The position numbers were made by a program, and so were the translations under genes. This document shows, one piece after another, positions 30,042 through 41,519 of a stretch of DNA of 64,000 nucleotides; positions within the stretch are counted from its first letter, which is position 1, and each line of letters opens with the position of its first letter. Source of the stretch: Octopus vulgaris (lineage: Eukaryota); the NCBI GenBank assembly GCA_951406725.2, contig OX597835.1, positions 14,384,001 through 14,448,000 of the forward strand. Reading direction: 5' to 3'. Under the pieces are notes generated by a model. It saw only the letters and a program-made list of their open reading frames with translations, did not search any database and was not told the DNA's origin.

Positions 30042-30826
30042 TTTCTATTATATGCACAAAGCCTGAAATTTGGGGGAGGGGGATAGTCGATTTCATCGAC
30101 CCCAGTGCATAACCGGTACTTATTTCTTCAACCCCTAAAAGGATGAAAGGCAAAATCGGCCTCGGCGGAATTTGAACTTGGAACGTAGCGACGGACGAAT
30201 TTCGTCCAACGTGCTAGCAATTCTTATTTCTTTATTGCCCACAAGGGGCTAAACATAGAGGGGACATTCAAGGACAGACAAACGGATTAAGTCGATTACA
30301 TCGACCCCAGTGCGTAACTGGTACTTAATTTATCGACCCCCGAAAGGATGAAAGGTAAAGTCAACCTCGGCGAAATTTGAACTCAGAAGGTAACGGTAGA
30401 CGAAATACTTATTTCTTTACTACCCACAAGGGGCTAAACACAGAGAGGACAAACAAGGACAGACAAACGGATTAAGTCGATTACATCGACCCCAGTGCGT
30501 AACTGGTACTTAATTTATCGACCCCGAAAGGATGAAAGGTAAAGTCAACCTCGGCGAAATTTGAACTCAGAAGGTAACGGTAGACGAAATACTTATTTCT
30601 TTACTACCCACAAGGGGCTAAACACAGAGAGGACAAACAAGGACAGACATAGGTATTAAGTCGATTATATCGACCCCAGTGCGTAACTGGTACTTAATTT
30701 ATCGACCCCGAAAGGATGAAAGGCAAAGTCGACCTCGGCAGAATTCGAACTCAGAACGTAACAGCAGACGAAATACTGCAAAGCATTTCGCCCGGCGTGC
30801 TAACGATTCTGCCAGCTCGCCGCCTT
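30042..30826 (-). mobile_element. Family B SINE multimer (4 units) within one TSD
   Basis: aggccaaccactattct flanks both ends (~30025, ~30827); internal junctions gaaatacttatttc. Confidence 0.85.
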
Positions 30827-31174: not shown

Positions 31175-31177
<3 letters not shown>

Positions 31178-31495
31178 GTATGCGATAAGGAAGAAAGAAA
31201 AGTTGATAGACATGACAGGTAAGCTCGGGAGGTTAAGCAGTTCTGGTCGCCGAAAAAGGTGGTAGTAGTACCAATAATTGTCGGAGCCCTGGGAACGGTG
31301 AGTATAAAATCGTGAGAAGTACGTGGAACAAATAAGGTCTGCAATAAGGATTGGACACTTGCAGAAAATAGCACTGCTTGGAACCGCTCGAATATTCCGG
31401 AAGGTACTCGAAAAATAAGAGGTGTTACTTTAGTTCACTGGTAGTGCACAGCTGACACTGTAGTACATCTGCAGCGTTAGAAGCTGTGCAAAGGC
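31175..31495 (+). mobile_element. R4/Dong-type LINE 3' fragment inside (TAA)n
   Basis: Translation DKEERKVDRH..REVKQFWSPKKVVVVPIIVGALGTVS...LQKIALLGTARIFRKVL; (AAT)n on both flanks, consistent with Dong's known TAA-repeat targeting. Confidence 0.75.
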
Positions 31496-31833
31496 AATAA
31501 TAATAATGATGATAATCTTCACTGGCCACAAAGGCCGAATACAAAACGAAAAGGGACAGTATAACACCGGAGACAAGTGGGGCTTAGCAATTCGTGTATA
31601 CAATAAAACAATAACAATTACCAACAAAAATTACACAATAAAATCCATCCCCAAATGGGGGGCGGGAGTTCCACTGAGGACTAAGGAACTCCACACACCC
31701 TAGTCACTCCGACCATCAAGGGTACCTCAGGCAAGCACCTCACTCTTCAATCCCTCCGACTTCATAATCCCTGAAGAATCTTTAATGGAAGATGAAGCCA
31801 GACGGTTCTATTTCCACTGTAAACCCTGTAGGA

Positions 31834-32881
31834 CTGATGAAGACCGGAGGGTACATCGGCCGAAACGTTGTGTTAACAACAAACAAGATAAGGACAATTA
31901 TCCGTCAAATGTAAATAATGTAAGTATGCCCACGGGCATATGGCGTAGTGGCTAAGAGCGCGGGCTATTAACCCCAAGATTCAGAGTTAGATTCCAGGCA
32001 GTGGCCCGAATAATAATAACATCGAAAAATACCTTAGAAATGAGAACCCAGGTTCGAAATTTCCCCAAGACACCTGGTGAAGACTGGAGGGTATATCAGC
32101 CGAAATGTTGTGTTAACAATAAATAAGATGAGGACAAATATCCGTCAAATGTAAATAATGTAAGTATGCCCACGGGCATATGGCGTAGTGGCTAAGAGCG
32201 CGGGCTATTAACCCCAAGATTCAGAGTTAGATTCCAGGCAGTGGCCCGAATAATAATAACATCGAAAAATACCTTAAGAATGAGAACCCAGGTTCGAAAT
32301 TTCCCCAAGACACCTGATGAAGACTGGAGGGTATATCAGCCGAAATGTTGTGTTAACAATAAATAAGATGAGGACAAATATCCGTCAAATGTAAATAATG
32401 TAAGTATGCCCACGGGCATATGGCGTAGTGGTTAAGAGCGCGGGCTATAAACCCCAAGATTCCGAGTTAGATTCAGGCAGTGGCCCGAATAATAATAACA
32501 TCGAAAAATACCTTAGGAATGAGAACCCAGGTTCGAAATTTCCCCAAGACACCTGATGAAGACTGGAGGGTATATCAGCCGAAATGTTGTGTTAACAACA
32601 AACAAGATGAGGACAAATATCCGTCAAATGTAAATAATGTAAGTATGCCCACGGGCATATGGCGTAGTGGTTAAGAGCGCGGGCTATAAACCCCAAGATT
32701 CCGAGTTAGATTCCAGGCAGTGGCCCGAATAATAATAACATCGAAAAATACCTTAGGAATGAGAACCCAGGTTCGAAATTTCCCCAAGACACCTGATGAA
32801 GACTGGAGGGTATATCAGCCGAAATGTTGTGTTAACAATAAATAAGATGAGGACAAATATTCATCAAATGTAAATAATGTA
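31834..32881 (+). repeat. Tandem array of a 240-bp unit (one partial + four full): tRNA-like Pol III head + minimal type I hammerhead ribozyme (retrozyme/SINE-like)
   Basis: Units start at 31928, 32168, 32408, 32647. Each has A-box TGGCGTAGTGG, B-box-like GAGTTAGATTC and GGTTCGAAAT, then GACAC-CTGATGA-A-GACTG..CAGCC-GAAA(T/C)GTT-GTGTT. HHR cores at 31834, 32074 (CTGGTGA), 32314, 32553, 32793. Confidence 0.85.
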
Positions 32882-33028
32882 AACTTGTGTTACATTTGAA
32901 TAACTTTGATTTGGGCAAAAGTAGAGGGAGCTGATTTCAACTTAGTAAATATTAACCCCATTTTCTTGTGGTTGCAAATTAATTTCAATGAGCTTTGTGA
33001 TTCCTGCTTGATGTTTCTTAGTTCATCA

Positions 33029-33371
33029 GGGTAAGGGTAAAGACCCCCTTCGGTCATGAATGACCATGGGATTGCACCTAGAAAGTTACCCTCCTAGACA
33101 CAAGTCCGGGCAAGGTTGTTTATGGAAGGCCAGCAGTCGCTCATGCATACCAGCCTCTCCTCTTCACGCCACCGATGTTATCCAAGGGAAAGGCAAAGGG
33201 GTCGATACAGCTTGGCACCAGTGACGTCGCAACTCATTTCTACAGCTGAGTGAACTGGAGCAACGTGAAATAAAGTGCCTTGCTCAAGAACACAACATTC
33301 AGCCCGGTCCGGGATTCGAGCTCACAACCTCACGATCGTAAGCTCGGCGATCTAACCACTGAGCCATGCGC
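33029..33371 (-). mobile_element. Family E SINE (tRNA head + CORE-like block + different tail) with 12-bp TSD
   Basis: TSD cttagttcatca; head ggcgcatggctcagtggttag...gagctcgaatccc; central block shared with family C. Confidence 0.85.
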
Positions 33372-33717
33372 CTTAGTTCATCACAATGCAAGAATTCAAC
33401 AACTGTTTTAAAAAGAGAAAAAAAACCTTTCAAGCAGTTTCCCATTGCCATCCATCGAACTTCTGTATGCAGCAACAACATTTTGAAAATCTTTATCATT
33501 TTCAATGCATTATCATTTCTCAGCTGTTGAAGCTGTGGGGAATTGATTTTACTAAGCGTATGCTTGATTTTATTTACTGCTCTGATAACAGTATTCAACG
33601 ATGTGTTAAATCTACGAAAGTTATTTGCATCCTGTGGAAACACAGGATGTGTAACATTTTCAATAAACTGAGGAGGAGGCAGCGACGAGAACGTACCATC
33701 GATGGTATTCCATTTAC

Positions 33718-37976: not shown

Positions 37977-38431
37977 TTATTTCTTTATTACCCACAAGAG
38001 GCTAATCATAGAGGGGACAAACAAAGACAGACATAGGTATTAAATCGATTACATCGACCCCAGTGCGTAACTGGTACTTAATTTATCGACCCCGAAAGGA
38101 TGAAAGGCAAAGTCGATCTCGGCGGAATTTGAGCTCAGAACGTAACGGCAGGCGAAATACTTATTTCTATTTCTTTATTACCCACAAGGGGCTAAACACA
38201 GAGGGGACAAACAAGGACAGATATAGGTATTAAGTCGATTACATCGACCCCAGTGCGTAACTGGTACTTAATTTATCGACCCAGAAAGGATGAAAGGCAA
38301 AGTCGATCTCGGCGGAATTTGAGCTCAGAACGTAACGGCAGGCGGAATTTGAGCTCAGAACGTAACGGCAGGCGAAATACCGCTAAGCATTTCATCCGAC
38401 GTGCTAACGCTTCTGCCAGCTCGCCGCCTTC
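37977..38431 (-). mobile_element. Family B SINE dimer with TSD and a 30-bp internal duplication
   Basis: TSD tattaatgtatatact; ggcggaatttgagctcagaacgtaacggca duplicated at 38311/38341. Confidence 0.9.
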
Positions 38432-40069: not shown

Positions 40070-41507
40070 AAGGCGGTGAGCTGGCAGAAGCGTTAGCACG
40101 CCGGGCGAAATGTACGTTCTGAGTTCAAATTCCGCCGAGGTCGACTTTGCCTTTCATCTTTTCGGGGTCGATTAAATAAGTACCAGTTAAGCACTGGGGT
40201 TGATATAATCGACTTAATCCGTTTGTCTGTCCTTGTTTGTCCCTTCTGTGTTTAGCCCCTTGTGGGTAGTAAAGAAATAGGTATATATGCTTTTTCTAGG
40301 GCGGTGAGCTGACAGGAGCGTTAGCACGCCGGGTGAAATGTACGTTCTGAGTTCAAATTCCGCCGAGGTCGACTTTGCCTTTCATCCTTTCGAGGTCGAT
40401 TAAATAAATACCAGTTACGCACTGGGGTCGATATAATCGACTTAATCCGTTTGTCCTCTCTGTGTTTAGCCCCTTGTGGGTAGTAAAGAAATAGTATTTC
40501 GTCTGCCGCTACGTTCTGAGTTCAAATTCCGCCGAGGTCGACTTTGCCTTTCATCCTTTCGGGGTCGATTAAATAAGTACCAGTTACGCACTGGGGTCGA
40601 TATAATCGACTTAATCCGTTTGTCCTCTCTGTGTTTAGCCCCTTGTGGGTAATAAAGAAATACTATTTCGTCTGCCGCTACGTTCTGAGTTCAAATTCCG
40701 CCGAGGTCGACTTTGCCTTTCATCCTTTCGGGGTCGATTAAATAAGTACCAGTTACGCACTGGGGTCGATATAATCGACTTAATCCGTTTGTCCTCTCTG
40801 TGTTTAGCCCCTTGTGGGTAGTAAAGAAATAGTATTTCGTCTGCCGCTACGTTCTGAGTTCAAATTCCGCCGAGGTCGACTTTGCCTTTCATCCTTTCGG
40901 GGTCGATTAAATAAGTACCAGTTACGCACTGGGGTCGATATAATCGACTTAATCCGTTTGTCCTCTCTGTGTTTAGCCCCTTGTGGGTAGTAAAGAAATA
41001 GTATTTCGTCTGCCGCTACGTTCTGAGTTCAAATTCCGCCGAGGTCGACTTTGCCTTTCATCCTTTCGGGGTCGATTAAATAAGTACCAGTTACGCACTG
41101 GGGTCGATATAATCGACTTAATCCGTTTGTCCTCTCTGTGTTTAGCCCCTTGTGGGTAGTAAAGAAATAGTATTTCGTCTGCCGCTACGTTCTGAGTTCC
41201 AATTCCGCCGAGGTCGACTTTGCCTTTCATCCTTTCGGGGTCGATTAAATAAGTACCAGTTACGCACTGGGGTTGATATAATCGACTTAATCCGTTTGTC
41301 CTCTCTGTGTTTAGCCCCTTGTGGGTAGTAAAGAAATAGTATTTCGTCTGCCGCTACGTTCTGAGTTCAAATTCCGCCGAGGTCGACTTTGCCTTTCATC
41401 CTTTCGGGGTCGATTAAATAAGTACCAGTTACGCACTGGGGTCGATATAATCGACTTAATCCGTTTGTCCTCTCTGAGTTTAGCCCCTTCTGGGTAGTAA
41501 AGAAATA
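40070..41507 (+). repeat. Family B SINE tandem array: two headed copies + six 169-bp headless units
   Basis: Units start at 40494, 40663, 40832, 41001, 41170, 41339; flanking ggtatatatgct at 40052, 40280, 41508. Confidence 0.95.
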
Positions 41508-41519
41508 GGTATATATGCT

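Follow-up and report, generated by a model that had tools for sequence, protein, structure and literature searches.

A tandem hammerhead repeat of Octopus vulgaris read as the pLTR of a Penelope-like element with a tRNA-related head

What kind of element produces a 240-bp tandem unit that joins a tRNA-like head to a hammerhead ribozyme motif? A sequence-only reading of the window, the 64,000-nucleotide stretch of Octopus vulgaris DNA analysed here, had taken the repeat for an independent, non-autonomous retrozyme-SINE. Much of its description of the array is borne out: TRF delimited a repeat at 31834-32882 with a period of 240, 4.4 copies and 97% matches, and the array consists, as proposed, of one partial and four full units (Table 1). 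The A box (TGGCGTAGTGG) recurs in all four full units (at 31941, 32181, 32421 and 32660), and the B-box position reads GTTAGA in 4/4. Stem III is ACGT in the partial copy only and ATGT in the four full units, and the two defects flagged earlier, a CTGGTGA core in one copy and an A-C mismatch in stem II, were both found in the array. The GGG-CTATTAA-CCC hairpin ascribed to every full unit is present in units 1 and 2; units 3 and 4 carry CTATAAA, and the family majority is CTACTAA.

A motif search placed hammerhead-like motifs in the array at 31829, 32069, 32309, 32548 and 32788. The Rfam hammerhead scan that had been named as a check gave no hit to a hammerhead or a tRNA at E<=10, and ARAGORN likewise predicted no tRNA anywhere in the window; because neither program made a call, we base both names on motif and alignment evidence. 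Full unit 1 runs from a fold-back palindrome through the tRNA-like head, an (AAT)n run, an ORF start and the hammerhead (CTGGTGA core) to an AT-rich 3' end, with the predicted cut after 32109 (GUU). Each unit of the array lacks the final ~35-base 'tail' of the wider family, and the frame opened by the ORF start is not continued in the array. The partial unit is missing the 5' strand of stem I and differs from the full units at 6-10 of 88 sites, keeping the ACGT stem III. A second B-box-like motif, GTTCGAAAT, at 32052-32060 and its repeats, lies within the first ORF codons and is kept in the family.

Table 1. Positions, in the window, of the array and its parts (assignments as argued in the text).
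Feature	Position	Further positions	Strand	Remark
Tandem array assigned to a Penelope-like element pLTR	31834..32882		+	5'-truncated unit plus four full units
Partial unit 0	31834..31924		+	from hammerhead core onward
Full unit 1	31925..32164		+	
Full unit 2	32165..32404		+	
Full unit 3	32405..32643		+	
Full unit 4	32644..32882		+	
Perfect palindrome	31925..31940	32165, 32405, 32644	+	spans the head's 5' edge
tRNA-related head	31934..32008	32174, 32414, 32653	+	
A box of first head	31941..31951		+	
B box of first head	31986..31994		+	damaged
First codons of the Penelope ORF	32040..32164	ATG at 32040, 32280, 32519, 32759	+	
Minimal type I hammerhead motif	32069..32114	32309-32354, 32548-32593, 32788-32833	+	layout as described in PMC4209133
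First TTTT 3' of the array	32961..32964		+	first possible Pol III terminator; in the flank, outside the element

The hammerhead core is not a chance motif: a 33-base core has 1,814 exact matches in the 2.8-Gb genome against 0 for the reversed control. A DNA search with the unit returned 1,800 candidates, of which 40 were scored, and no other copy of the 240 array variant was found among these 40. The family consensus predicted earlier (stem II GGCTG/CAGCC, GAAACGTT and B box GTTCGA) is the majority form of 26 oriented non-window copies, and this majority includes the ~35-base 3' tail, which is present at 25/50 copy ends. Copies are 8-15% diverged. The suspected minimal type I hammerhead of the Penelope kind is intact in the family majority, with CUGANGA, one bulged base, a stem II opened by G-C, GAAA, a palindromic stem III, UH and stem I; this is the layout of the minimal hammerhead of Penelope-like elements (PLEs) as described in PMC4209133. 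In loci that had been chosen without regard to the core, 106 distinct hammerhead copies were compared: the majority stem II is found in 56, the CG of stem III survives in 55 and has undergone CpG decay in 47, and 25 have the whole motif intact. Covariation within the family is nearly nil, the variation being mostly CpG decay; related elements set the same core in different stems I and II. The partial unit of the window (31834-31874) carries a compensatory stem II pair, C-G for T-A (GACCG/CGGCC), of a type absent from the 20 commonest stem II types in the 106 other copies.

The tandem arrangement proved to be exceptional: two same-strand hammerheads occur in only 3/86 locus records (2 places), inverted unit pieces on both strands occur in 58/86, and most dispersed copies are single units to which an inverted arm is joined head to head. 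Nor did the independence of the element hold up, as the unit is almost certainly the pLTR of an endonuclease-bearing Penelope/Poseidon-type retrotransposon, an autonomous element's own pLTR that holds its ORF start. The earlier Penelope link was well placed, since the unit flanks a Penelope-type RT-endonuclease frame on both sides. The endonuclease region continues straight into the head in 24/30 loci found with that region (at L007 the endonuclease-coding sequence runs into the head, with an inverted copy upstream), and the unit also sits 5' of the ORF's 5' part. The majority sequence of 18 long copies comprises a pLTR, a single stop-free frame of 836 codons and a pLTR in 2,874 bases. Its layout is head, (AAT)n, ATG, hammerhead (codons ~12-25), tail, remaining RT/endonuclease ORF, stop, short spacer and head.

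The 836-codon frame contains the motifs DKG, GLAMG and YVDD, followed at the C-terminus by CVY..CSC..YKGET..RxxEH. Its RT matches Pfam RVT_1 (E 2e-9), which homologs carry too; the endonuclease gave no match to Pfam GIY-YIG (PF01541), with C-terminal GIY-YIG-type motifs present in order. A quick tree, built with no named reference, groups the family with the homologs P0001-P0004. The ORF starts at the ATG just after (AAT)n, ~30 bases 3' of the head and in frame in 5/5 natural copies scored, which places the hammerhead within coding sequence. In the natural copy L126 the reading frame runs on from the hammerhead into the ORF body, and its product aligns with homolog P0003 from the ribozyme-encoded peptide onward at 45% identity. 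An ATG inside the hammerhead core was rejected as the start, its frame closing early in natural copies with the upstream ATG in frame. No single copy carries the full ORF intact, the longest natural frame in long copies being 321 codons, and the family may therefore be extinct.

The family shows pLTRs in partial tandem, inverted 5' arms and an optional tail, inverted arms and optional tails being standard PLE features as described in PMC8557442. By structure it belongs to the PLEs, and its short form would work like a tRNA SINE without being a separate one. SINEs borrow LINE machinery; here the unit belongs to an autonomous PLE and has PLE-type ends, which is not the pattern of a separate LINE-mobilised SINE.

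The 98%-identical L041 and L045-L048 were considered as a young master and rejected, the three examined over their full length being copies of one ~10-kb duplicated segment in which a truncated element has another 3' end. A ~10-kb segment duplicated on C7 and C31 at 98-99% identity (L091, L092 and L095) holds a Tx1-like LINE and a truncated copy of this PLE whose 3' end differs, together with hammerhead-like motifs in both orientations; in L091 a tRNA-Met gene was seen as well. A second PLE family, young and very abundant (L093 1295-2422 on the minus strand, L176-L205; 17,095 candidates), has many open frames of ~811 codons and a zinc-finger-like linker, and served as a control below.

How, then, did the window array arise? 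All four full units have six derived changes in common, among them that of the B box and the CpG decay of stem III, and because this damage is shared, expansion as DNA after decay is most likely. The full units are also mosaic, three sites splitting 1,2 from 3,4 and two sites splitting 1,2,4 from 3, an incompatible pattern. MFE folding fails to recover the dimer fold, and the energies quoted here are accordingly those of individual helices only: the stem III dimer helix comes to +2.6 kcal/mol for AUGU against -1.7 for ACGU, and stem II in the window units is weakened from -5.9 to -2.2 kcal/mol. With ATGT and the A-C pair, the four full units fall outside the definition of the minimal PLE hammerhead, and the ribozymes of this array probably cleave weakly or not at all. 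A ribozyme is not required for tandem growth here, because the same 64 kb holds four tandem arrays of another abundant SINE-like repeat (30219-30777, 37978-38348, 40341-41508 and 47590-48133; periods 184, 190, 169 and 184) that have no hammerhead cores, and also no TTTT on either strand.

These observations bear on the model put forward in the sequence-only reading, in which adjacent hammerheads of an active retrozyme-SINE dimerise and release 240-nt monomers or circles. In its favour, the array contains no TTTT, and Pol III could thus read through it. Tandem hammerhead repeats derived from pLTRs have moreover been described, 1/9 dimers tested, one from Xenopus, having cleaved strongly, and the array would fit the structural definition given in the same account if ATGT is tolerated (10.64898/2026.07.22.740005). 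Against this model stand the rarity of tandems in the family, the want of a further copy of the array variant among the 40 scored candidates, the damaged B box, A-C mismatch and ATGT of all four full units, and a mosaic pattern that points to DNA exchange; we regard it as very unlikely. The array very probably grew at the DNA level after it had decayed. The locus would have begun as a partial tandem of a truncated and a full copy, which decayed and then expanded by unequal exchange between direct repeats. By itself, the window array is an ordinary decayed pLTR minisatellite.

At the 3' end of the array, a 10-base inverted match with the right flank (32863-32900) is perhaps a short fold-back, and 33030-33375 on the minus strand is another tRNA-headed SINE-like repeat adjoining the array, with a weak tRNA-like Rfam alignment. 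The left flank (31500-31833) matches none of the retrieved loci; at 31176-31500, flanked by AAT runs, lies a fragment of a repeat with matches at three other loci, which to the eye may resemble the end of an R4/Dong-type LINE. Two more CTGATGA...GAAA motifs lie in the window at 54713 and 62550, and MFE folds of them give no hammerhead.

The remaining question concerns the head. As the sequence-only reading had proposed, it is tRNA-related and of Pol III type: it aligns with host tRNA genes above shuffles (best Arg-TCG, Met, Arg-TCT and Ala; z 6.5-7.4, in a comparison with 21 genes of few isotypes), and in the family majority its A and B boxes match the consensus. It no longer folds as a tRNA and obtains no tRNA score from Rfam or ARAGORN. 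The head is, in our reading, a tRNA-derived segment that the pLTR acquired together with its A and B boxes. Copy number changes abruptly at this segment. From 786 exact 20-mer hits at ~-175, the number goes to 1,038 at ~-35, to 5,148 within the head and to 8,646 past the AAT run. Corrected for match rates of 0.40, 0.42, 0.35 and 0.34 in that order, these figures correspond to roughly 2,000, 2,500, 15,000 and 25,000 pieces, each a minimum, with an inverted arm counted as a piece of its own. Across the 5' edge of the head the rise is thus ~six-fold, against 1.25 and 1.7 on either side. In assembled contigs from four sequencing runs, three of them presumably of RNA, compared with L007, the family is present and depth again steps at the head.

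Individual copies show the same edge. Of 30 head-selected loci, 20 begin at -7..+4, 8 were scored as internal and 2 as read-through by an ungapped classifier; L226 and L233 are among those scored internal, but inspection by eye puts the start of one at the head and makes the other a read-through. The perfect palindromic junction, the genome-wide fold-back form that the window palindrome represents, gives 1,400 strand hits, corresponding to 700-1,400 places, against 530 for the read-through junction; of the latter, 30/30 examined continue into the PLE body, none folding back. Fold-back thus happens before base -8, and the simplest explanation is an RNA with its 5' end fixed at -6 or -7. Pol III starts at this same position ahead of a tRNA gene, ~6-7 bases upstream. 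Among long copies with a direct upstream pLTR, L145 starts at -2 of the head and L107 at +4; in L103 and L105 the start lies ~65 bases upstream of the head, and some templates therefore had their start ahead of it.

A palindrome-induced fold-back hotspot on long RNAs could also produce the step without Pol III. The head would then be a passenger without function, derived from a SINE or a piece of tRNA that became attached to a PLE end, with all RNA made by Pol II or by read-through and with 5' ends piling up at the palindrome that the attachment left behind. The read-through junction is itself an imperfect inverted repeat, some long copies do start upstream of the head, and the PLE promoters described so far, in the accounts of PMC8557442 and PMC6765202, are Pol II promoters in the pLTR. 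However, every fold-back takes place before base -8 and none follows copying of the longer imperfect stem (30/30), the A and B boxes fit the consensus in the family majority, and a passive head leaves the depletion of TTTT described below unexplained. We consider a passive head rather improbable, and a Pol III origin of the short copies, as judged from their sequence, fairly likely.

The mechanism that we propose would proceed as follows. In any intact pLTR, Pol III would start ~6-7 bases upstream of the head, and transcription would end at the first TTTT met in the flank. This pLTR RNA would be bound by the RT of the element, which would start internally in the AT-rich 3' part, internal starts yielding two end classes, with and without the tail; in Poseidon of Anolis, RT is described as starting at two internal sites that define the tail (PMC11167929). 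RT would then copy to the RNA 5' end, where the cDNA could fold back on the short palindrome and prime an inverted arm. The outcome would be many short, promoter-bearing, SINE-like copies beside ordinary 5'-truncated PLE copies, and a tRNA-promoter pLTR may in this way let one element be both a protein-coding retrotransposon and a source of thousands of SINE-like copies. Taken as a whole, the combination of pLTR identity, Pol III-made short templates and DNA-level expansion of the array is the explanation that we favour as likely.

Could Pol III transcribe the whole coding element from the upstream pLTR, giving a full-length template and perhaps an mRNA, with terminators purged for that reason? 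The 2,874-base majority contains no TTTT (TTTT 0, GGGG 0, TTT 16, AAAA 31), where synonymous shuffles of it contain a mean of 2.8 (P=0.03; codon-order P=0.03) and recoding with the codon usage of the second PLE family gives P=0.006. Natural copies carry 67 TTTT runs in 128.8 kb aligned (0.52 runs/kb) at scattered sites. Among related PLE stretches, at least one TTTT occurs in 46/46 at a median of 3.55/kb, and the 27 of 46 with T<=0.24 have 3.24/kb; this control set comprises those of 80 metagenome relatives that had a usable 1.2-3.2 kb match, its members are 26-50% identical and not independent, and it leaves out the DNA of the nearest relatives, P0001-P0004. The second PLE family, younger and of the same A/T make-up in the same genome, has 4-11 runs per 1.4-2.2 kb in 12 frames. 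TTTT is therefore depleted relative to both. The long copy L145, moreover, begins at -2 relative to the head, and the ATG lies close past the head.

Several points nevertheless count against whole-element transcription by Pol III. GGGG is absent as well, Markov models of the TTTT absence give P=0.075-0.15, the TTTT test was chosen after the data were seen, Phe is low in many relatives too, and two long copies begin upstream of the head. Uncapped Pol III RNA is moreover a poor mRNA, and translation is the weak step of this reading. Ribozyme cleavage can promote cap-independent translation in other systems, as described in PMC13725137; in our family, however, the predicted cut falls 3' of the ATG. 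Post hoc as it is, the sequence evidence for whole-element transcription is suggestive, and we hold this reading to be possible but doubtful. Equally tentative is its bolder form, in which an autonomous coding Penelope element would have swapped to a captured tRNA-type Pol III promoter and purged terminators from its 2.7-kb sense strand, each pLTR serving as promoter, ORF start, ribozyme and self-propagating SINE. If the bold reading is true, a LINE-like element and its SINE are united in one sequence.

Set beside known systems, the family most resembles Poseidon_Ac of Anolis as described in PMC11167929, sharing the pLTR-ORF-pLTR order, an RT followed by C-terminal GIY-YIG-type motifs, a minimal hammerhead over the ORF start, inverted 5' arms and an optional tail of 30-40 bases. 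The Anolis hammerhead, which overlaps the ORF start, is reported there to need protein to cleave and to be dispensable for insertion in vitro. Unlike Poseidon/Penelope clade PLEs in that description, the octopus family has an A/B-box head, a pile-up of 5' ends at it and no sense-strand TTTT. A pattern search found an A/B-box match beside the hammerhead in 0/46 related loci. With non-LTR retrozymes, as presented in PMC7229834 and 10.64898/2026.07.22.740005, the window array shares tandem 240-base units, a type I hammerhead and derivation from a pLTR; it differs in having a directly identified parent element in octopus, in the rarity of arrays, in a hammerhead that is loopless, minimal and damaged, and in a head of Pol III type. 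Animal non-LTR retrozymes are described as derived from pLTRs, with local expansion by unequal crossover proposed (10.64898/2026.07.22.740005), and a pLTR origin of tandem hammerhead units with unequal crossover is to that extent already known.

What is unusual is the tRNA-derived, Pol III-type head inside the pLTR. In the full-text literature, the scope of our search as distinct from subscription papers, Repbase and SINEBase, neither a tRNA SINE mobilised by Penelope nor a pLTR with a Pol III promoter turned up, and we likewise found nothing in print on the identity of the short form with a PLE pLTR or on its hammerhead. In work cited by PMC10886601 and PMC3531059, Ohshima and Okada are said to have described tRNA-derived SINEs of octopus in 1994, reportedly named OK, OR1 and OR2. 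Set beside these by description only, the short form is alike in its tRNA-related head (Arg among the best), length of ~270 bases and high copy number; it may already be catalogued as a SINE, perhaps as one of theirs. In the parts available, PMC7229834 on non-LTR retrozymes does not mention octopus, SINE or polymerase III, and the cephalopod repeat surveys PMC13282606 and PMC8967140 list Penelope and SINEs without ribozymes.

The family offers a testable case for the role of PLE hammerheads and for whether Pol III RNA can carry a retrotransposon ORF, and the proposed mechanism, if true, would show how SINE-like and retrozyme-like elements can arise directly from an autonomous PLE. The closest parallel for its promoter and ribozyme is Sm-alpha and Sj-alpha of Schistosoma, in which, as described in PMC6765202, a Pol III-type promoter is followed by a hammerhead in repeats. 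Unlike Sm-alpha, which has a canonical hammerhead and is described there as non-autonomous, the octopus promoter and ribozyme lie within the pLTR and ORF start of an autonomous element; such an arrangement, if our reading is true, could explain the origin of Sm-alpha-type promoter-plus-hammerhead repeats.
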